Source: a phage. From it: a DNA stretch of 64,000 bases. The stretch lies in sequence record PZ496581.1. One strand, given 5' to 3'. The notes beneath the pieces were generated by a model. The model ran no database searches, was not told the origin of the DNA, and saw only the letters and a list, made by a program, of their open reading frames with translations. This document shows, in pieces, positions 599 to 54,517 of the stretch (position 1 is the stretch's first letter; every line of letters begins with the position of its first letter). Made by a program: the position numbers and the translations under genes.

Positions 599-3310
599 TC
601 AAAAATCAAACATATCGAACAGAGATGCTTTCTTCTCGTAATCGAGTTTAGCTGCTGATGTGAATCCTTCAAGTGGTTTAATAAATGTCTTCTCAAGGAG
701 AACAGTGTAGTCCATCCAATGAAGTACATCGTCTTTAATTAAATCTGTGATTTCAGTACCAGAAGGCCATGCGATACATTTATCACCGAATGGGTTTCCT
801 TCACGTAAAGGCAGAACATATACTTTTTCACCTTCTACAACTTGCGGTGCATCGATATTACCTTTGATAGCCCGGTTATACGTCAGAATTCCACGAATAT
901 GGAACGGGCATTTGGGACCAGGGAATCCACCGACGTCATATTTAGCAATGTTATTCGCAGAAGATACCGACGCGATGCTAATATAATTCAACTGACGGAA
1001 TTCTTTTTCAAACTCTTTAAAATATTCTTGTAATGATTCTTCACCTTCCTGAAGCATACGACGAATACATTCCTTAAGAGCTTTCTGTACTGCTTTAGGA
1101 GTCGAAGATTTCTGTGTTTCGAGACCCATGATTTTAAGCTTAGGTTCAGCGTATCTGGTTCCTTCCATATCCCATACATTCAAGGCATAACGTTTCTTAC
1201 CTGTCCAAAATCCGCCAATACCTTTAGAACCAAGCGGAGGCCCAGCGATAGCTTCTCGGTCCATGAACATTAAGTGTTGTTTATTGTTCATGTATTCACA
1301 CATTTCACGGAAACCTCTATCAATAGCTGGTTCCATACGTTCACGTGCAAACTTATCTAAGAAGTCTACCCAATGGTTGGTATCACGGAATTTAGATTCA
1401 CCAACCTTATCGATAATTTTATCGGCAGATACGTAAATAGAGTCTGTATCACCATAAAGAACGAAAGCTTCACCTTCTGTACCACAAACTTCATTCAGAT
1501 ATTCATTAACTTTACGTTCAATCCACTGTAAAGCCATTTGTCCGAATGTTGTGATTGCAGTAGCATTACGCAAATCATAATAACGGAACCAAACGTTTCC
1601 AAGTGCACCATAAAGTGAGTTGATGAGCAATTTACGGTTAATTTGTGCAGTCATACCTGCAACTTCAGTACGTTGAGCTCTAAACAACATTTCATTAAGA
1701 GATTTAGCAGACAACTTTTTAATCTTTTCTTTAATCTCATCGCTGAAGTCGAAACGATAATCAACATCTAATGGTTCGTCAACAGAAAGATTAGGATTAT
1801 GCAATGCCTCTTTAATTATTTCACCATTACGTTGAGCTGCAAGCATGTAACCTTTATGTTCTTTACGTTGATTAAAGACCTTAGTGATTTCAGTTGGAAC
1901 TACACCATCACGGTCTTTATAATACATCATGCCGTTAGGAGAACAACTGTACACATCTGAAGGACGTTCAGCGATTGCGTTAATATAATCATGCAATGGA
2001 GCTACTTTAAACGTTCCTGCTATTGTTTCCGGGCTAATATTCACTTGGCGAATAATACTTGGATACAGAGATGTAAGGTCGAAACTCATTACATATTTGT
2101 ATCGATTTGGAATAGGTTCCTTAACAAAAGCGCCAGGATAAGGTTGAACCGGGTGAGAACGACCTTGTGGAATCACCTTGTTCTGTTCTTTAAGGCTATT
2201 AAAAATAATAGCATCCCATGTTTTAATTGGGCCAAACACAGATTGAATCTGTATCTTAGCATAATAACCCATGTCCAAACTCAAGTTGATGAACTGACGC
2301 TTAGCATCAATTTGCAATACACGATACACATCGATAATGTTATAAGAAATATATCGTTGGTGATTGCTTTCACGAAGTTTAGAAATAGGGCCGTCATATT
2401 TCAGTTTACCAACGTTCAATTCAAATTCTGAAATGTAATCCAGAGAATACGATGGTTGATTGGTAAAAGAGAATTTTTTGTAAAGGTCAATGTAATCAAG
2501 AACAGAGATACCGAACAATGTAATGATTTCACGAGAACCATACATGTTTTCGATAACTTTAACACGAGTTTTACGATGTGGTGATAAACGTTTCGCAGTA
2601 GATTCGCCAAAAATATTCTTGATTCGGTTATACACATATGGAATATCGAATGACTCAACGTTCCATCCAGTCAAAATGACAGGAGTTTTCTGTTGCCAGA
2701 AGTTGAGATATTCCATCAACAATTCTTTTTCGTTATCGAACGGTATATAAATGATTTTATCGATAATTTCGGATGGAACTTCATCACCACCTTGTTCTTG
2801 AAGCTTAGCCGCAATTTCGATAGACCATTCTTCTACATTACCATACGGAGAATTCAATAGATCAAATACGTAGAACCTGTCGTCAATTGAGTCATAATGG
2901 GTGATAGCATCAATCGGATGTTTTGCTTGTGATGGCTCAGGGAACCCATCCGGAGATGTTACTTCGATGTCGAAGTTAGCCACACGAATTTTTGTATGGT
3001 CGTATTTGATTTCATAGTTATAAGTGTCAGACAAATACGCCAATTTGAAATCGTCCATACCAAGTGCTTCAAGTCCGATATCTTCCATGCGTTTAATCCA
3101 TTGGGAGGCATCACGCATATTAGCGAACAACTTACGAGTACACGGCTTACCGTAGATATCGAAATATTTCGTAGCCTGACTTTCTGGACAATGAGCAAAC
3201 AGTGATGGTTTATATTCTACTTCACGAGTACGTTCACGGCCATTAGAATCGATGTAACGTTCAAAAATTGAATCACCAATCTGTTCAACCGTTAAGTAAA
3301 ATTCTTTCAT
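599..3310 (-). CDS. 43: DNA polymerase, family B (gp43)
   Basis: 903-aa ORF with exo motif FDIEV and polymerase motifs SLYPS and YGDTDS; length and N-terminus as recalled for RB69 gp43. Confidence 0.97.
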   Translation of the reverse strand: MKEFYLTVEQIGDSIFERYIDSNGRERTREVEYKPSLFAHCPESQATKYFDIYGKPCTRKLFANMRDASQWIKRMEDIGLEALGMDDFKLAYLSDTYNYEIKYDHTKIRVANFDIEVTSPDGFPEPSQAKHPIDAITHYDSIDDRFYVFDLLNSPYGNVEEWSIEIAAKLQEQGGDEVPSEIIDKIIYIPFDNEKELLMEYLNFWQQKTPVILTGWNVESFDIPYVYNRIKNIFGESTAKRLSPHRKTRVKVIENMYGSREIITLFGISVLDYIDLYKKFSFTNQPSYSLDYISEFELNVGKLKYDGPISKLRESNHQRYISYNIIDVYRVLQIDAKRQFINLSLDMGYYAKIQIQSVFGPIKTWDAIIFNSLKEQNKVIPQGRSHPVQPYPGAFVKEPIPNRYKYVMSFDLTSLYPSIIRQVNISPETIAGTFKVAPLHDYINAIAERPSDVYSCSPNGMMYYKDRDGVVPTEITKVFNQRKEHKGYMLAAQRNGEIIKEALHNPNLSVDEPLDVDYRFDFSDEIKEKIKKLSAKSLNEMLFRAQRTEVAGMTAQINRKLLINSLYGALGNVWFRYYDLRNATAITTFGQMALQWIERKVNEYLNEVCGTEGEAFVLYGDTDSIYVSADKIIDKVGESKFRDTNHWVDFLDKFARERMEPAIDRGFREMCEYMNNKQHLMFMDREAIAGPPLGSKGIGGFWTGKKRYALNVWDMEGTRYAEPKLKIMGLETQKSSTPKAVQKALKECIRRMLQEGEESLQEYFKEFEKEFRQLNYISIASVSSANNIAKYDVGGFPGPKCPFHIRGILTYNRAIKGNIDAPQVVEGEKVYVLPLREGNPFGDKCIAWPSGTEITDLIKDDVLHWMDYTVLLEKTFIKPLEGFTSAAKLDYEKKASLFDMFDF

Positions 3311-3319
3311 TTAATTTCC

Positions 3320-3340
3320 TTTAGACGAGTTATTGTCTTT
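3320..3340 (-). promoter_or_regulatory. gp43 translational-operator-like hairpin 5' of the gene 43 ribosome-binding site
   Basis: mRNA-sense AGAC-AAUAACUC-GUCU hairpin then AAAGGAAAUUAAAUG; loop matches the T4 operator loop as recalled. Confidence 0.45.
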
Positions 3341-3368
3341 TGTTTGTTGATGAACTTATTATACTCCA

Positions 3369-3388
3369 AATGGGACCGAAGTCCCATT
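3369..3388 (-). other. stable RNA hairpin with UUCG tetraloop immediately 3' of regA
   Basis: AAUGGGAC-UUCG-GUCCCAUU on minus-strand RNA; near-identical copies at 23870-23885 and 37568-37589. Confidence 0.5.
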
Positions 3389-3391
3389 GCT

Positions 3392-3760
3392 TTAATTACC
3401 AATTGTATATTTTGCTTTCAAAGTCCAGTCATCTTTCTGTTTAAAAGAGATAACACGGAAGTTATTAGTCAGGCCAAACAGATCTTCACGAGCAGAGTCT
3501 TCAATAACAATCAAGCCCCAGTCTTCAAGCAACTGAGCAATCGAATCACGTCGCTGATAGTCTTCACCATCAATATCAACCTGACGTCCGTCCATACGCA
3601 GCATTTCTTTAAAGTGGACGATGTAATATTTACCTTGCTTTTGGAGGATATGACAGGACTGATAAAGAACTTTATCCTTGTTATTAGCGATGCCCATACG
3701 GGTCAGAGTCTCTTTGACTTTCAGAAAATCTTCGGGGTTCTTCAATTTAATTTCGATCAT
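3392..3760 (-). CDS. regA: translational repressor RegA
   Basis: ORF begins MIEIKLKNPEDFLKVKETLTRMGIANNKDKVLYQSCHILQK at the internal Met, matching T4 RegA. Confidence 0.93.
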   Translation of the reverse strand: MIEIKLKNPEDFLKVKETLTRMGIANNKDKVLYQSCHILQKQGKYYIVHFKEMLRMDGRQVDIDGEDYQRRDSIAQLLEDWGLIVIEDSAREDLFGLTNNFRVISFKQKDDWTLKAKYTIGN

Positions 3761-24187: not shown

Positions 24188-25174
24188 TTATTTATAGTAA
24201 GAATTATGATTTTCGAGATAGACTTGCTCAAGGAAATCATCCCAGAAACTCATATCTACTTTTTGTTGCATACCGTTCTTAGCGGCTTGTTCTGACGCAT
24301 GTTCAACTTGGTCAACGATATCTTCTAGGAATTCTTGTACAGTTTTAAACGTATGTTTACCAAGCTTAACATCGAGAATAAATGGAGCATCCTGAAGTGG
24401 GTAAACCAGGTCGCCGGTTTTGTAAATTTCCAATAATTGAAGTCCACCACGACATGCATGACTCAATGCTTTCCAGTCAATACCTTCGTTGGCTTCCGCC
24501 TTACGAGCACGTTCACCGTAGTTCTCTTCCAGTTTAACCAGGATGGCATTGAACTCTTTATTGGTTAACGTATCTTGGAATTTACGATCTAACAGATTAT
24601 AGAATGTTTGCTTACCTGTTTTCTCGTTTTCGGTTTCAACCCACGAAGCAAATTCACCTACAGGCAGAACATTCTTCATATGTGATAAACGAATTACTGC
24701 ACCGTTATCAAAGTATTGTCCCCATTCATTAGAACGTTTAAGGGCTTGACGAAGAACAGCCAGTCGAGAACCCTTGACGCCGTATTTAGAAGCTTGCTTA
24801 CGGACATACCCTAAATAAGATTTCATGTTAGTGGTATAGAAACGAGACCTGTTATCTTGAATATACTTCCATACATCAGGCAAATCAGATTTAACTACTA
24901 GACTTTGTGGAGTGTGAAGCATATCTAATGCGACGGTTTCACCATCCGCGGCTAGTTTAAAGAAATATTTGAGACTATACAACTCATGGTCCACGTCGTC
25001 TTTTGTGTTCTTAGAAGATGTGTTATTCGTGTTCTTGCTCATGTGTTCTTTAACGTTACCGGTCAAGATATCACGAGCATGAGGGACATAAATTTCTTTA
25101 AAATCGACGTCAGATTCAGGAGTAGACGTTCCATAAAGGTGGCTACCAAAGTAAGCCTTAACAATAGTTTTCAT
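24188..25174 (-). CDS. nucleotidyltransferase-fold protein (Pol-beta superfamily-like)
   Basis: 328 aa; N-terminal FGSHLYGTSTPESDVDF plus downstream acidic residue in VALDMLH fit the G[GS]-x9-13-DxD + D pattern. Confidence 0.5.
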   Translation of the reverse strand: MKTIVKAYFGSHLYGTSTPESDVDFKEIYVPHARDILTGNVKEHMSKNTNNTSSKNTKDDVDHELYSLKYFFKLAADGETVALDMLHTPQSLVVKSDLPDVWKYIQDNRSRFYTTNMKSYLGYVRKQASKYGVKGSRLAVLRQALKRSNEWGQYFDNGAVIRLSHMKNVLPVGEFASWVETENEKTGKQTFYNLLDRKFQDTLTNKEFNAILVKLEENYGERARKAEANEGIDWKALSHACRGGLQLLEIYKTGDLVYPLQDAPFILDVKLGKHTFKTVQEFLEDIVDQVEHASEQAAKNGMQQKVDMSFWDDFLEQVYLENHNSYYK

Positions 25175-33467: not shown

Positions 33468-33797
33468 TTATACTCTAGGCTTTTGAGCTTGTTTGGTATT
33501 GGATTCCCATGCGGCTTTGGTAATTTTGTTAGCGGCATAACCAAAGGCATTAGATAGAACACCTTTAGAGTTGAATACATCCAATCCAATAAGTACACCG
33601 GCTGTGTTAAATTTAGGAGCAAAGTACGCATTAGTTTTAGAAAGAGCTTTTTTCAATTCAGGGTCTTGAACCAAGCCATCAAAAACGCCTTTACTATTTA
33701 CTTTATATGTTACTTTGGGATTTTTACCTTCTTCGATAGCAGCTTTCTGTTCCGCAGATAATGTAACTTCAGTGATAAACTCCTGATATGTTTTCAA
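33468..33797 (-). CDS. internal-protein-like, capsid-targeting N-terminus
   Basis: MKTYQEFITE N-terminus resembles the T4 IP capsid-targeting sequence. Confidence 0.6.
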   Translation of the reverse strand: MKTYQEFITEVTLSAEQKAAIEEGKNPKVTYKVNSKGVFDGLVQDPELKKALSKTNAYFAPKFNTAGVLIGLDVFNSKGVLSNAFGYAANKITKAAWESNTKQAQKPRV

Positions 33798-33822: not shown

Positions 33823-34137
33823 TTATTCTTTAGGGAAGTTTTTAGAGTATGCATCATAAAGTTTATTACCAATACGACGGAAGACTTTAGCTGCAAAACG
33901 GTTTTCAGGGTTTTTAATCATGATTTGCATCATGTAAGTTCCTGCATCCGAAAGAGCTTCTTCATAATACCCATTAATTTCTTTAAGAGTCCTACGTTTA
34001 CCACCAGGACCATCAACAGTAATTTTCCATTTACCTGTAGAAGTGCGGCTCGGTGGCTCAACTTGTTCAATCCAAATATAACCACCTTCAACGCGTTGGT
34101 TGGCGGATTCTGCAATAAATTCTTTATACGTTTTCAT
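33823..34137 (-). CDS. internal-protein-like, capsid-targeting N-terminus
   Basis: MKTYKEFIAE N-terminus; GTTTAC-N18-TATAAT promoter upstream. Confidence 0.6.
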   Translation of the reverse strand: MKTYKEFIAESANQRVEGGYIWIEQVEPPSRTSTGKWKITVDGPGGKRRTLKEINGYYEEALSDAGTYMMQIMIKNPENRFAAKVFRRIGNKLYDAYSKNFPKE

Positions 34138-34200: not shown

Positions 34201-34461
34201 TTAAGCTTTACCGCCAGAAATAATTCCGAAGTTGTTAAAATCATATCCAATATCGTCAACATCTACTTTAGGACTTGCTACAACATAAGCAATTTCACTA
34301 CGTTTTGCATAGGTGTTGATTTCTTTACCATTGCCACCTAAGAAAGAATACCCATTACGTTTTAATGAGCCAAAGTCTTCCGCATCACCAATGAAAGCTT
34401 TAACTTTAAATTTAGGGTCTTTGGTATCTGCTTCAACGATAAATTCTTGATACATTTTCAT
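34201..34461 (-). CDS. internal-protein-like, capsid-targeting N-terminus
   Basis: MKMYQEFIVE N-terminus. Confidence 0.55.
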   Translation of the reverse strand: MKMYQEFIVEADTKDPKFKVKAFIGDAEDFGSLKRNGYSFLGGNGKEINTYAKRSEIAYVVASPKVDVDDIGYDFNNFGIISGGKA

Positions 34462-34939: not shown

Positions 34940-35221
34940 CTATTTTTCTGAAGCGCCTGAAATATATTTTTCAAGACGTTGTTTCATCAGCGAGCCGTTC
35001 TTAGCGATTTCTTCCGGTTTATCGCACATACGTAACAAGGCTTCAAGCTTAGCGATATCGCTGGTACGTTCAAATTTGCGAGTATCTATCTTACTAGCAA
35101 GTTCAGAAATACGTGCTAGTAGACTTTCGGCTTCAACCAAAGCTGCACCTAGCTTAGTTGCAAATGTGTCAGTAGCTTCGTTAAGAATAGATTCTGATAA
35201 AAATTCACTATATGTTTTCAT
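34940..35221 (-). CDS. internal-protein-like, capsid-targeting N-terminus
   Basis: [10 protein letters not shown] at internal Met; ATGA overlap with the stop of e. Confidence 0.6.
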
Positions 35222-36440: not shown

Positions 36441-36913
36441 TCGGTAATAAAACGTTCAACTTCATTATTCTTGGCTTTTATCTTGTCTTTATGTTCTTGT
36501 AAACTACTTTTAATAAGATTAATAATGATGGCGACAGTGCCGCCGCCAATGATGCCACCAATAATACTTACGATAGTAGATGCTAATAAGATAGCAATAA
36601 TATCAACAAAACCGAAAGAACTCACCTTAGTACTAAAAAACCATACCGATGGTACAAATATAATCCATCCTGCTATCCATTGGCACTTATTGAAAAACTT
36701 TTCAAGATCAGCTTGAGTTGTTCGTATTACTTCATCGATAGGTTGATAACCGTTAATGTATCTGTTCACGATAATACCTGCTGGCTGGTCGATTTTAAAT
36801 TCTTGGCAAATACGTTTAACTAAGTAGGATGGACATCCTGTCCAATCTACTGAATAGTATGAAATACCTTTATTGCCGTCGTCTATATTAGACCAATATG
36901 TTTTGTTAATCAT
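36422..36913 (-). CDS. hypothetical membrane protein
   Basis: 163 aa with Gly-rich TM helices (IIGGIIGGGTVAII). Confidence 0.55.
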   Translation of the reverse strand: MINKTYWSNIDDGNKGISYYSVDWTGCPSYLVKRICQEFKIDQPAGIIVNRYINGYQPIDEVIRTTQADLEKFFNKCQWIAGWIIFVPSVWFFSTKVSSFGFVDIIAILLASTIVSIIGGIIGGGTVAIIINLIKSSLQEHKDKIKAKNNEVERFITECRNLR

Positions 36914-37482
36914 TACCAGCCTTCCATAGGGAATTCCAGATAAACTTGAGCGTTGACACGAATTTCATTGGTAATCTTTTTAACTCGGTCTGTATTACGA
37001 GATACACGTCCGAACCAACGCCATCCATTACTAATTGCACGAGAACCAGTGTGCCATGTTTGCCAATCAAACTGAAGAAGAGTACGGTCCGGAGCTTCCC
37101 ATTTCTCTAGTTCACCTTTTTCAATTTTTTCGAGGACTTCTTTGTGCCACTGACGATAGATAAGTTCGCCATCAGAAGTTTTAACATCTACAACCCAATC
37201 GCCATCTTTCTCTTCAACCTGTGGTTTATCCCAAGAAATACTAATATATGATTCACTGTCAATAGAAGTCGCCGGGTTTTTCTTTACTGTAAGACCTTCA
37301 CTTTCCAGCCATTCAATAGTATTTGCGCATAACTCAGAAGAACACCTCATCGGAAACCGGCAAGATTTTTCACCTTTAGCTGCGGTGTTATACATCTTTT
37401 CTAAAATACGCTTTTGCACGTTTTTAAAAATAGTTTCAGCCGATTCTTCAGATTTTTTATTCAGTTCAGTATAAAGACTCAT
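36913..37482 (-). CDS. hypothetical protein
   Basis: 189-aa ORF; GTTTAC-N17-TACTAT promoter upstream. Confidence 0.55.
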   Translation of the reverse strand: MSLYTELNKKSEESAETIFKNVQKRILEKMYNTAAKGEKSCRFPMRCSSELCANTIEWLESEGLTVKKNPATSIDSESYISISWDKPQVEEKDGDWVVDVKTSDGELIYRQWHKEVLEKIEKGELEKWEAPDRTLLQFDWQTWHTGSRAISNGWRWFGRVSRNTDRVKKITNEIRVNAQVYLEFPMEGW

Positions 37483-37567
37483 AACATTTTCCTCTGTAGT
37501 TGATAAGTCTATAGTATCACATCTAGGGAAGAAGTAAACAACTTTTTTAGTAAGTTATAGACCCCCT

Positions 37568-37589
37568 AATGGGGACCGAAGTCCCCATT
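37568..37589 (-). other. UUCG-tetraloop RNA hairpin
   Basis: AAUGGGGAC-UUCG-GUCCCCAUU directly after the stop of the 37592-38218 gene. Confidence 0.5.
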
Positions 37590-37591
37590 CT

Positions 37592-38218
37592 TTACTTACG
37601 AGTTTTTGCATACTGAGCAGCGTCAGCAGCCAAACGACCTGCTTGTCGAAGTTTTTCTTTAATCTCATCATGAAGTGGTTGAGTATACTTCAAACCTTCG
37701 ATAGTCAAATAAAGACGATAAAGGTCTGGGGTATCAAGGTTGTTGATATGTTGGCCATTACGAAGAATATTGAATTCACGAACGAGTGAAGATGTATCAG
37801 ATTCAATATCACGAACAAGCGAAGATAGTTGTTTATATTTTTTTTCCAGGCTAGAAGTATCAAACTTAAGAGCAGGAGCTTTAGGAGTTGCTTTTACTTC
37901 CGGCTTAGGCTCAGGTTTTGCTATTGCTTTAGGGGACGCAGGTTTAGGAATGGTAGGAGCAGGTTTTACTTTAGGCGAACCCGATTTAGCAGAAACACCA
38001 CCACTAACAATATCTTTGAATGCTTTAGAAGCTCTGTAATATTCTTTTTGGCTGGAAGTGTCGATACCGTACATGGCTTGAACGTTTTTGAAAAACTCTG
38101 TACTAGTTTTTGTACCAGAAATAGCATCGTAAGCAGCTTGCCATTTCTCTTTTGTCATACGTACACCGGCTTCGGTGATTACTTCCGTTTCGGCTAAAAA
38201 TTCATTAAAAGTATACAT
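37592..38218 (-). CDS. internal-protein-like, capsid-targeting N-terminus and Pro/Lys-rich linker
   Basis: 208 aa; MYTFNEFLAE N-terminus; PKVKPAPTIPKPASPKAIAKPEPKPEVKATPKAP low-complexity tract; TATAAATA late motif upstream. Confidence 0.6.
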   Translation of the reverse strand: MYTFNEFLAETEVITEAGVRMTKEKWQAAYDAISGTKTSTEFFKNVQAMYGIDTSSQKEYYRASKAFKDIVSGGVSAKSGSPKVKPAPTIPKPASPKAIAKPEPKPEVKATPKAPALKFDTSSLEKKYKQLSSLVRDIESDTSSLVREFNILRNGQHINNLDTPDLYRLYLTIEGLKYTQPLHDEIKEKLRQAGRLAADAAQYAKTRK

Positions 38219-38262
38219 TGATGGTCCTTAGAAAGTAGGTTTATTGTTTACTATATTTATAC

Positions 38263-38293
38263 AAAAAAGCCCCAACCTTTCGGAAGGGGCTAT
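38263..38293 (-). terminator. intrinsic terminator (duplicate of 27760-27790)
   Basis: same GCCCC...GAAA...GGGGC hairpin plus U tract on minus RNA. Confidence 0.6.
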
Positions 38294-38593
38294 ATACCTT
38301 GTCGGGTTCCCACCTGCTAAGGCAAGTGTTTGTACGAAACGCCGGGATTCGAACCCGGTTATTAAGCAGTTGACGCTACTCAATATTTTTAAAAGGCCAT
38401 ATCTCGACCATATCCGAACGTTCCGTCAAAAACGCTACTCGGCTTACGGCAAAGATATTTCCTCGAATCGATAATTCTGTGCGCCGTTTCTGCTGTGATG
38501 TAAGGGGATATTAACGAATCATAAAGATTTATTAAGACCAGTCCTTACTCAGGGAACATCAGTCCGACGACTTGCCGGTAGCGACCCGGCTTC
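38294..38593 (-). ncRNA. tRNA-like structured RNA region (possible small stable RNA)
   Basis: no ORF; minus-strand CCGGGTTCGAATCCCGG T-arm; GAAACG ~170 nt upstream can pair the 3' CGTTTC; terminator downstream. Confidence 0.35.
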
Positions 38594-38939
38594 TTATTTT
38601 GGCATATCATCAATTTGCTCTCGACGCCGACGCCATAGATTAATCGCTTCATAAACACATTCAGCATTTGGTATATGACGACAATAGTATAGTGATTCGC
38701 GTTTCTGGAACCGATGTTGTAATGGAATTTCGTTTAAAAGGTCTTTACGGTCAAAGTATTCAAAACTAGTTAACCCTGAACGGTTTTTAAGAAACTTCCA
38801 ATGTCCGAATTCATTTTGAAAATAGACATAATCAGCATGCTGATACAGCGAATTAATTAACCTATCGGAAATAACTGTTTCACGTTCGTTAAAATAAAAC
38901 GTTAAGTCATGAACTACCAGATAAATATTGCCCTTTCAT
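38594..38939 (-). CDS. hypothetical protein with apparent 1-nt frameshift after codon 3
   Basis: ATG at 38939 with GAGGA SD reads MKGQYLSGSS-stop; the other frame is open for 114 codons with no in-frame start codon. Confidence 0.4.
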
Positions 38940-39018
38940 ATTTTCCTCACTTGAAGTTGGTGCCTCTAGAAAGATTTGAACTCTCACCATTAACCTTAGA
39001 ATGATTATATGCTATCCA

Positions 39019-39684
39019 TTACACTATAGAGGCAATTAAATTATTTACAATATCTTCTTTATAAACTTCAGCATAATGAAGTTCATATATTTCCCATCCT
39101 AATGATTTTATAATATCATGGCGTTCTTTATAATAAGGGGCCAAAATCTTTTTCTTAGGATTGGAGTAATGTTGATTTCCATTAACTTCAATAATAATCT
39201 TTTTATCTATTAAAGCGATATCCGTGCAATACGCTCGGTTTTTAACCGGTTGGTATTCTTCAATAAATGAAATTCCGTTTTCTATTAATTTAGATTTCAA
39301 AAATTCACAAGGCACAGATTTAAATTTTGTATTTTTCTTCCAAGGATGTTTATCGGGGTTTTCATTCAACCATTTTTTCCGAGCATTAGATATTTTTATT
39401 CTAGATTCCTCAGAGTGTTCTCTACCTAATGAAGCGGCTGACAATTTTTGTCTAGTCTCTTCCGAAATTACTACAGGAACACCAGTCTTTTTAGATACAA
39501 CATACTGGTTTAAATTACCTGAAGCTATACGTGCTTTATTCATTGCTGCAATGGCTGATTTAGAACTTTCTTTATACAATTCCAATTTAGGGTTGGATTT
39601 ACACCATCTAGTGTGGTTAGCCATCCATCCTTTAGGTTTATTAGAAATATCAAATTCCATATTACAATGTTTACAAATGCTCAT
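39019..39684 (-). CDS. homing-endonuclease-like protein (Zn finger + NUMOD3-like repeats + Vsr/DUF559-like nuclease)
   Basis: N-terminal CKHC...HTRWC; ISEETRQKLS / SEESRIKIS repeats; C-terminal DIALIDKKIIIEVNGNQH...GWEIYELHY. Confidence 0.6.
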   Translation of the reverse strand: MSICKHCNMEFDISNKPKGWMANHTRWCKSNPKLELYKESSKSAIAAMNKARIASGNLNQYVVSKKTGVPVVISEETRQKLSAASLGREHSEESRIKISNARKKWLNENPDKHPWKKNTKFKSVPCEFLKSKLIENGISFIEEYQPVKNRAYCTDIALIDKKIIIEVNGNQHYSNPKKKILAPYYKERHDIIKSLGWEIYELHYAEVYKEDIVNNLIASIV

Positions 39685-39757
39685 TACCAATTATCTCCTA
39701 TAAATATAGGAGTATTTATTATTTGGATAGAGCACTTAATTTACTTCGTTTAAATTA

Positions 39758-39829
39758 CTGGCGCACTTGGACTCGAACCAAGATAAAGGAGTTAACAGCT
39801 CCCCGTAATAACCTTTATACGATGCACCA
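39758..39829 (-). tRNA. tRNA-Asn (anticodon GUU), CCA not encoded
   Basis: manual cloverleaf: 7-bp acceptor, GGGAG/CTCCT anticodon stem, loop CUGUUAA, T-arm CTTGG-TTCGAGT-CCAAG. Confidence 0.6.
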
Positions 39830-39835
39830 TTTGTT

Positions 39836-39910
39836 TGGTGACCCTGGCTGGTTTCGATCCAGCTACCTATCAGTTATGAGCTGACAGCTCTCCCATTGAG
39901 CTACAGGGCC
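39836..39910 (-). tRNA. tRNA with CAU anticodon (Met, or Ile if lysidine-modified), CCA encoded
   Basis: manual cloverleaf: GGCCCTG/CAGGGTC acceptor, D-stem GCTC/GAGC, anticodon loop CUCAUAA, 3' ACCA. Confidence 0.65.
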
Positions 39911-41416: not shown

Positions 41417-41704
41417 TTACAGAAGAGTTTTTGCAATAATTTTAAGCTGAGCTACAGAAATATGCTTAGCTTTAAACAGTGCAGTCTCTTCAGCCGGAGA
41501 GATAACAATAGTAGCGCCATCTTTCTTGGCAGACCATCCATCCCCTAAGTAAACAGTACCTTTTACTTCTTCGCCGTCAACCAGACTAATCATTGGTTTA
41601 CCCTCACGTCCTTTATTTGCTTTAATAACTTCGGAAGTAAGGGTTGCTTCGGTCAGAGTAGAAACGTTAGCAACAGGTGATATAAATTCTTGATAGGTTT
41701 TCAT
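41417..41704 (-). CDS. internal-protein-like (ipI position)
   Basis: MKTYQEFISP N-terminus; promoter with AGGATGAT/ATCATCCT inverted repeat upstream. Confidence 0.6.
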   Translation of the reverse strand: MKTYQEFISPVANVSTLTEATLTSEVIKANKGREGKPMISLVDGEEVKGTVYLGDGWSAKKDGATIVISPAEETALFKAKHISVAQLKIIAKTLL

Positions 41705-45231: not shown

Positions 45232-45239
45232 TATAAATA
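45232..45239 (+). promoter_or_regulatory. late promoter (TATAAATA) for gene 53
   Basis: exact TATAAATA on plus strand ~43 nt upstream of the gene 53 ATG, in the divergent 4/53 intergenic region. Confidence 0.6.
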
Positions 45240-54509: not shown

Positions 54510-54517
54510 TATAAATA
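54510..54517 (+). promoter_or_regulatory. late promoter (TATAAATA) for gene 9
   Basis: exact TATAAATA ~33 nt upstream of the gene 9 ATG. Confidence 0.6.

Follow-up and report, generated by a model that had tools for sequence, protein, structure and literature searches.

The window analyzed here, a 64,000-nucleotide stretch of phage DNA (sequence record PZ496581.1), comes from a Mosigvirus (RB69-like, T4 family), and a 1.1-kb region of it is 97–98% identical to CEV1, FP43, p000v, and HX01, the last of which is classified as Straboviridae/Tevenvirinae/Mosigvirus. Our subject is a minus-strand gene in this window for a protein of 208 amino acids (aa). We consider it fairly probable that the gene encodes a late-made internal head protein of the T4 type, which would be packaged via a ten-residue tag at its N-terminus.

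The putative packaging tag and the protein that bears it

An earlier note, made from the sequence alone, had drawn attention to an open reading frame (ORF) beginning MYTFNEFLAE and had described this start as capsid-targeting-like. The ORF is present, with an ATG start (Table 1), and comparison strongly supports the reading of its N-terminus as a capsid targeting sequence (CTS). The T4 internal proteins (IPs) IPII and IPIII start MKTYQEFIAE, while IPI starts MKTFKEF...STITE/A. The first ten residues of IPIII are enough for packaging, positions 4 and 7 being important in targeting and positions 8 and 10 in processing (PMC9026906), and the prohead protease, gp21, cleaves after the Glu of I/LxE (PMC12991175). 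All four of these mapped positions are matched in the 208-aa protein (F4, F7, L8, and E10), and it has gp21-type I/LxE sites at residues 8–10 and 14–16, the second being followed by Ala, as in the T4 IPs; on sequence the mature N-terminus is probably A17. Supporting this assignment is the fact that the pattern M-x-x-[FY]-x-[EDQ]-[FI]-[LIV]-x-E is found in nearly all full-length members of the family, even when they are only 25–40% identical elsewhere, and that x-x-E-A/S-G is kept in most homologs. The tag is one residue shorter in three relatives (P0016, P0026, and that of phage ValerieMcCarty04).

An AlphaFold2 model built with a 19-sequence alignment has a small helical N-domain behind the tag, then a disordered basic linker and a three-helix C-domain (Table 1), in agreement with the earlier description of a low-complexity tract of about 40 residues (43 by our delimitation, and rich in Pro, Ala, and Lys) ahead of a C-terminal helical domain. 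The linker contains 11 Pro, 9 Lys/Arg, and 8 Ala, a composition that is kept in homologs while its length and sequence vary. The C-domain is the most conserved part of the protein, its mean pairwise identity of 76% (minimum 53%) exceeding those of the N-domain (64%) and linker (50%), and it has invariant motifs, e.g., NNL.TPDLY.LYL and KYTQP. The cleaved product is computed to be small and basic (21.3–22.0 kDa, isoelectric point 9.6–9.7); the corresponding values for T4 IPIII* are 20.4 kDa and 9.65, and the isoelectric points of IPI*, IPII*, and IPIII* range from 9.0 to 9.65. The window has five other ORFs of the CTS type, of 86–109 aa, three of which belong to PHROGs named internal head or internal virion protein. 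The claim that the 208-aa protein is twice the size of other IP-like proteins holds with regard to these five ORFs but not for the class, as T4 IPIII has 193 aa.

Fold searches returned no specific structural neighbor, their matches being either family members or generic helical hairpins. The sole Pfam match, to SIX1_SD, was below threshold (E 0.098), and a sequence search of the PDB found nothing below E 0.5. Two candidate identities were considered and rejected. The NCBIfam match to TonB scores 17.5 bits against a cut-off of 315 and is confined to residues 80–121. Residues 75–117 do resemble the Pro-rich spacer of TonB and the Lys/Pro/Ala tails of histone H1-like proteins, but this likeness is compositional only, and the 208-aa protein has neither the N-terminal anchor nor the C-terminal domain of TonB. 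Similarly, the helical hairpin is not accompanied by the combination of a significant fold match and a WXG motif that would mark a WXG100/Esx-like protein.

T4 IPIII shares with the 208-aa protein a CTS of the same ten-residue type with cleavage at Glu10, a mature size and charge near its own, and the location of its gene in the same counter-clockwise tRNA-e-ip region. In contrast, there is no homology beyond the tag (the BLASTP alignment is limited to residues 1–26, and that of hhalign scores 32% over 25 columns), IPIII has neither a Pro/Lys linker nor a two-domain layout, and ipIII has an early promoter and early RNA whereas the 208-aa gene has a terminator and then a late promoter. We rejected homology to the IPI, IPII, and IPIII families, the matches being to the tag only and the PHROGs being different (2280 versus 2667, 3499, and 4363). 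T4 IPI resembles the 208-aa protein in having a downstream ITE/A site after its CTS (STITE19/A in IPI and EVITE16/A here) and in the accessory, polymorphic nature of its locus, and IPI* is the model for an injected anti-defense protein. Unlike the 208-aa protein, IPI* is a compact single domain of 76 residues with no homology to it, and the window has its own IPI ortholog (Table 1).

The late promoter, the cassette, and its alleles

The second feature on which our assignment depends is a T4-type late promoter motif, TATAAATA, which the earlier note had reported and whose place ahead of the gene we confirmed (Table 1). Comparison of orthologous loci strongly supports its reading as a late promoter. 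A NATAAATA motif is found at the same place in 10 of 11 such loci although their flanks have diverged, and [T/G/C]ATAAATA lies about 30–45 nucleotides (nt) before the ATG, usually right after a hairpin and among differing surrounding bases. The loci compared included those of JS98 (Dhakavirus), CHI14 (Winklervirus), fHe-Yen9-01 (Tegunavirus), PG7 (Karamvirus), Marfa, Kosakonia phage 305, IME523 (Kanagawavirus), PP01 and fD1 (Tequatrovirus), and APCEc01, which is the only one with a degenerate motif; ValerieMcCarty04 (Jiaodavirus) has the same arrangement of hairpin and late motif. The promoter is kept in position, directly behind the terminator, across about ten genera. Within the window, six of the eight copies of TATAAATA, including the one studied here, lie 24–42 nt upstream of the starts of ORFs of at least 69 aa.

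A late promoter is unusual for the early block in which this gene is situated, as the earlier note had remarked. T4 ipI, ipII, and ipIII have sigma70-type early promoters directly upstream, and the T4 ip genes were classed as "early-RNA, late-protein" in time-resolved omics (PMC9697503 supplement). Because the IP genes of T4 itself have early RNA, finding the transcript only early would not refute packaging, and the refutation that the earlier note had proposed on this ground is invalid for IPs in general. A literature search, which extended to RNA-seq of PP01, found no transcriptome for any phage carrying the 208-aa gene.

Several other copies of TATAAATA in the window are worth recording in their own right. 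The six include a divergent, back-to-back pair on both strands at 45232/45254 between a 149-aa minus-strand ORF and a plus-strand ORF. At 54510 (+) a terminator followed by TATAAATA precedes a 290-aa ORF in an arrangement that resembles the cassette studied here. Copies at 24196 (−) and 28352 (−), within the "early" block, precede small ORFs by 24–32 nt; one of these ORFs has 69 aa and a signal-peptide-like start (MKKLVIGLFAVMMAF) and the other 77 aa, and both are candidates for further late-expressed small genes.

On sequence, the gene is a stand-alone cassette that consists of the tRNA/rnaC terminator, late promoter, Shine-Dalgarno sequence, ORF, and a hairpin, followed by the next early promoter (Table 1). 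The upstream hairpin is a homolog of the T4 rnaC/tRNA-operon terminator and aligns with agccccgaccgaaaggttggggcttttt, from the 3' end of T4 rnaC; it was folded separately, as its internal loop caused a simple terminator scanner to miss it. The UUCG hairpin just past the stop codon is likely an RNA 3' end or a stabilizer at the downstream edge of the cassette, and the early-type promoter beyond it has the same form as the promoters upstream of T4 e.8, ipI, ipII, and ipIII.

Table 1. Features of the 208-aa gene, its product, and its surroundings in the window (dG, folding free energy; z, RNA fold z-score; pLDDT, predicted local distance difference test)
Feature	Position	Strand	Remarks
ORF, 208 aa	37592..38218	(-)	ATG start, stop included; precursor 23.2 kDa, isoelectric point 9.5; PHROG 2280
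Putative CTS, residues 1–10, MYTFNEFLAE	38189..38218	(-)	First I/LxE site, LAE10/T
Second gp21-type site, residues 11–16, TEVITE	38171..38188	(-)	ITE16/A; resembles T4 IPI propeptide end STITE19/A
Small helical N-domain, residues 17–74 (ERMTKxKWQ... AFKD motif)	37997..38170	(-)	AlphaFold2 helices 23–31, 39–50, 57–72; pLDDT 79–86
Disordered basic Pro/Ala/Lys linker, residues 75–117	37868..37996	(-)	43 residues; pLDDT 30–35; isoelectric point 10.3
Three-helix C-domain, residues 118–208 (FDTSSL..KKY.QL...NNL.TPDLY.LYL.IE.LKYTQP)	37595..37867	(-)	Helices 122–153, 164–177, 180–206; pLDDT >94
Shine-Dalgarno sequence AAGGA	38225..38229	(-)	6 nt before ATG (38218), read from sequence
T4-type late promoter motif TATAAATA (gp55-dependent class)	38254..38261	(-)	Exact match, 35 nt upstream of ATG
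Intrinsic terminator hairpin, GC-rich, GAAA (GNRA) loop and U-tract	38263..38291	(-)	dG -16 kcal/mol, z -2.96; upstream cassette boundary
Hairpin just past stop codon, UUCG loop, no U-tract	37568..37589	(-)	dG -15.5 kcal/mol, z -2.36
Sigma70/T4-early-type promoter GTTTAC-17-TACTAT, outside the gene	37511..37539	(-)	Serves next gene, 36913-37482
Other CTS-type ORFs	33468-33797, 33823-34137, 34201-34461, 34940-35221, 41420-41704	-	41420-41704 is the IPI ortholog

The limits of the cassette are apparent from comparison with the sister Mosigvirus APCEc01, in which the flanks are 94–96% identical to the window; similarity ends at 38257, within the late promoter, and resumes at 37545, and between these break points APCEc01 holds a different, 154-aa allele. 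Since the similarity breaks off and resumes at promoters, we regard this late cassette as a discrete and exchangeable unit insulated by a terminator. In T4 no gene lies between rnaC and e.8. The T4 record (approximately 70624–70907) keeps the rnaC terminator, and its agreement with fD1 and the window ends precisely at the beginning of TATAAATA (ggtatCTAAGCC versus ggtatAAATA), a junction shared with the replacement of the Mosigvirus allele at 38257. On this alignment T4 looks like the deletion, or empty, state of the cassette, with its junction inside the late promoter. By sequence comparison, then, the locus is accessory and allelic, being empty in T4 and occupied by another allele in sister Mosigviruses.

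Full-length relatives of the 208-aa protein are widespread. Searches with tblastn identified 139 phage records with a protein of this type, all of them annotated as hypothetical, and the carriers include Mosig-, Dhaka-, Winkler-, Teguna-, Karam-, Kanagawa-, and Marfaviruses. The allele of the window is also found in HX01, JS09, p000v, and AV117. PHROG 2280 is labeled as of unknown function. In a profile search of 1.84 billion representative proteins we found only 13 clusters, all with the same architecture, and neither domain occurred outside the order of CTS, N-domain, linker, and C-domain, implying that the family is confined to T4-like phages of Enterobacterales.

A distant member, P0025, bridges this family to a shorter protein of 154–157 aa, for which examples are PP01_137, fD1 g140, and APCEc01_157. 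A tblastn search with P0025 matched 568 phage records, including many Tequatroviruses carrying the short form and other Mosigviruses. Profile-profile comparison (hhalign) of the 208-aa family with the short form gave a probability of 98.9% (E 2e-17) when the bridging sequences were included and 92% (E 7e-7) when they were left out. Proteins of the short form are distant full-length homologs at the identical locus, encoded in the same cassette of terminator, TATAAATA, and CTS-bearing ORF; they differ in having a shorter linker, a 16-residue deletion that removes the NNL.TPDLY loop, and an N-domain with only about 18% identity.

The PP01 homolog is annotated (2911-3474) from a TTG 30 codons upstream, a reading that runs through the terminator and late promoter. 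Translation almost certainly begins instead at the ATG of MKSYTQFLNE, the start given for fD1. Beyond the PP01 ORF there is a second rnaC-terminator hairpin (3481-3514), placing the cassette between direct repeats, which suggests how it may be gained or lost.

The C-domain itself may be replaced. IME523 and 57 other Kanagawa-/Jiaodavirus records join the same tag, N-domain, and linker to an unrelated C-domain, while Serratia phage 92A1 has a third, different C-domain on the same N-terminal module. As one N-terminal module bears unrelated C-domains, the family behaves as a modular carrier of interchangeable, supposedly injected domains; the accessory, allelic locus and the swapped C-domains together form the pattern expected of arms-race genes.

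The setting of the 208-aa gene is the counter-clockwise "early" block known from T4, with a cluster of tRNA-Met, tRNA-Asn, and tRNA-Arg (38958-39910) just upstream and, downstream, e.8/e.6-like genes, nudE, lysozyme e, and a row of small ip-like genes. The window ORF 33468-33797 (−), which starts LKTYQEFITE from a TTG, adjoins its paralog 33823-34137 (−), which starts MKTYKEFIAE and has an early promoter (GTTTAC-17-TATAAT) directly upstream. Both belong to PHROG 3966 ("unknown function") and look like further unannotated internal proteins. The gene after the cassette, 36913-37482 (−), encodes 189 aa whose N-terminal part matches PHROGs 18312 and 6869 and whose C-terminal part matches PHROGs 23363 and 1843; its similarity to APCEc01 is limited to the 5' part (37169-37545), which suggests a mosaic or fused gene. 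On the other side, window 38259-38599 (−) has 88.6% identity to the T4 stable RNAs of species 1 and 2 (rnaC/rnaD) and a tRNA-like T-arm, ggttcgaatcc, and no Rfam model matches it. The 47-aa coding sequence annotated over this RNA in HX01 and the 51-aa TTG ORF in the window (38228-38383) are both probably spurious. Between tRNA-Asn and tRNA-Arg there is a 223-aa ORF with a TTG start (39019-39690, minus strand), whose 3' end shares about 15 nt with the 5' end of tRNA-Arg (38958-39033). Its PHROG matches are weak and include "homing endonuclease" (E 1.6e-5); T4 has segB at the same position, and HX01 lacks the ORF and has one of 114 aa instead.

Probable packaging and its alternatives

The suggestion of the earlier note that the protein is packaged in the virion fares well with respect to the tag and late promoter, both supported by comparison, whereas the virion proteomics of relatives is mixed. 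In liquid chromatography-tandem mass spectrometry (MS) of purified fD1 virions, g140 was scored as particle-associated at the strict threshold and its neighbors g138 and g139 were not (PMC8309999 Table S3). Peptides of g140 with putative gp21-cut ends would be AVLNEASSTEIQAVAK and ASSTEIQAVAK, and the fD1 data set is public (PXD026812).

Several observations weigh against packaging and the role we attach to it. The fD1 preparation was not clean: it yielded 113–137 of the 277 gene products, with denV, lysozyme, and NudE among them, and because so many non-structural proteins were present we treat the detection of g140 as modest support that raises the odds by roughly a factor of two or three. 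In cesium chloride (CsCl)-purified virions of ValerieMcCarty04, no peptide-spectrum match (PSM) was found for the homolog WKM80661.1 among the entries listed, with none of six of its tryptic peptides present there (PMC13119998), while in the same sample two canonical CTS proteins had 26 and 66 PSMs and the neighbors of WKM80661.1 were present in the accession-sorted list. All of the virion evidence comes from relatives other than close homologs, for which a literature search covering Mosig-, Dhaka-, Karam-, and Kanagawavirus, fHe-Yen9-01, Kosakonia phage 305, and Pet-CM3-4 found no usable virion proteome. Counts alone show no enrichment of TATAAATA, which occurs eight times in the window versus 7.9 expected, so that its reading as a promoter is based on position and conservation. 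Lastly, since the helical hairpin is of a generic kind and lacks an informative neighbor, an effector or anti-defense function is argued by analogy only.

The ValerieMcCarty04 result weakens the packaging hypothesis but does not overturn it because WKM80661.1 has a different, alternative C-domain and a shortened CTS, and because the negative applies to the entries listed. The tag of this protein (gene 1192-1776), MKFKDFLTE, is one residue shorter, which shifts the mapped targeting aromatics. If the short tag and the missing PSMs are linked, this phage would represent a natural test of the rule that positions 4 and 7 direct targeting.

A different explanation of that result is that the protein is a passenger of the prohead core, targeted by its tag and then degraded by gp21, or expelled at maturation like gp22, or retained in only a few copies per head, with a role in head assembly. 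We consider this unlikely, although it would account for a Jiaodavirus member going unseen among the CsCl virion entries listed when canonical IPs were well seen, and there is a precedent in T4 IPIII, which plays a part in morphogenesis and is co-purified with gp22 (PMC9026906). The C-domain also contains two more [LIV]xE motifs, VRE148 and IKE188, at which it might be cut; however, these are in confidently folded helices and are not of the preferred I/LxE-Ala type. The detection of g140 in fD1 particles is contrary to such a fate, and the absence of the gene from T4 and its alleles within a genus fit a core assembly role poorly.

A packaged protein need not have a specific target, and the basic mature protein with its 43-residue disordered basic tract might act as a histone-like neutralizer of DNA charge via Lys, Pro, and Ala. 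The T4 IPs are themselves basic, embedded in the DNA, and present at about 1000 molecules per head (PMC3012670; PMC9026906). We consider this explanation slightly less probable again than the core passenger. The folded C-domain, with its invariant motifs, is more conserved (76%) than the basic tract (50%), and whole C-domains are exchanged between phages, neither of which would be expected of a simple counter-ion.

It is improbable that the protein is a late cytoplasmic one that is never packaged and whose CTS-like N-terminus is a relic of recombination with ip genes. The one negative virion data set for a relative, and the fact that the evidence for packaging comes only from relatives, would suit this explanation, but a relic would not be expected to keep four functional positions and I/LxE across lineages that have diverged to 25–40% identity, and the timing implied by the promoter matches head assembly. 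A chance ORF or annotation artifact, for which only the lack of a known domain could be cited, is refuted by full-length syntenic homologs in the 139 phage records, coding-type conservation, and a confident predicted fold.

Proposed role and significance

Packaging as a late-made internal head protein remains the explanation we favor, and the T4 paradigm provides an outline of how it might proceed. The tRNA/rnaC terminator would stop early transcription and the late promoter would then drive the 208-aa gene, such that the protein would be made late, when proheads assemble. Residues 1–10 would dock it on the gp22 scaffolding core and gp21 would remove the tag at LAE10 and/or ITE16, leaving a basic protein of about 21–22 kDa with an isoelectric point of about 9.7, IPIII-like in size and charge. 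Genes 21 and 22, for the protease and scaffold, are outside the 64-kb window but belong to the core genome of T4-related phages (PMC9026906). The disordered Pro/Ala/Lys tract may hold the protein on the packaged DNA, and by analogy with the T4 IPs it would probably be injected, leaving the head with the DNA at infection. More speculatively, the C-domain would be the working part, binding a target, of the host or of the phage, just as infection begins.

The role for the C-domain that seems most probable is the countering of host defense, by analogy with two internal proteins: IPI*, which inhibits GmrSD (PMC3012670), and the non-homologous CTS protein Bas37_0260, which inhibits McrBC (bioRxiv 10.1101/2025.11.20.689424). 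Bas37_0260, described from a Tequatrovirus in the HIDEN-SEQ preprint, is the best precedent for such a role in novel CTS proteins, in that it is unrelated to IPI–III save for its N-terminal packaging tag, comes from a polymorphic ip locus, and has been genetically shown to counter host restriction. It differs from the 208-aa protein in sequence and locus (ipI), and the function demonstrated there is only inferred here. A specific anti-defense role for the 208-aa protein is, we believe, a tentative proposal that has less than an even chance of being correct.

We also propose, with slightly more reserve still, that the locus between the rnaC terminator and e.8 is a dedicated late slot for modular capsid-delivered effectors, in which a constant carrier would present interchangeable C-terminal "warheads" against different host defenses. 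The carrier would comprise the CTS, helical N-domain, and basic linker, with at least three unrelated C-domains and a deletion variant as its cargo, and when cassettes are exchanged the conserved terminator and promoter would act as the homology arm on the upstream side. If true, this would be a phage analog of polymorphic toxin/effector systems.

CTS-bearing internal proteins and polymorphic loci are already well known, and the 208-aa protein fits this class by every criterion that sequence can test, while having no homology to any IP that bears a name. What is new is modest: a widespread, unannotated IP family at a previously undescribed locus, from the rnaC terminator to e.8, and what appears from sequence to be strictly late, insulated expression of a carrier with swappable C-domains. 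Such terminator-insulated late expression contrasts with the early transcription of the T4 ip genes. The host encounters internal proteins before any other phage protein, and both of the internal proteins with known targets, IPI* and Bas37_0260, disarm restriction systems. As a widespread "hypothetical" protein that bears a recognizable packaging tag, the 208-aa protein is a cheap, testable candidate for an injected anti-defense factor. The carrier of CTS, N-domain, and linker could serve as a natural scaffold for packaging foreign proteins, and the cassette may explain differences in host range among near-identical therapeutic Mosigviruses that differ exactly there.

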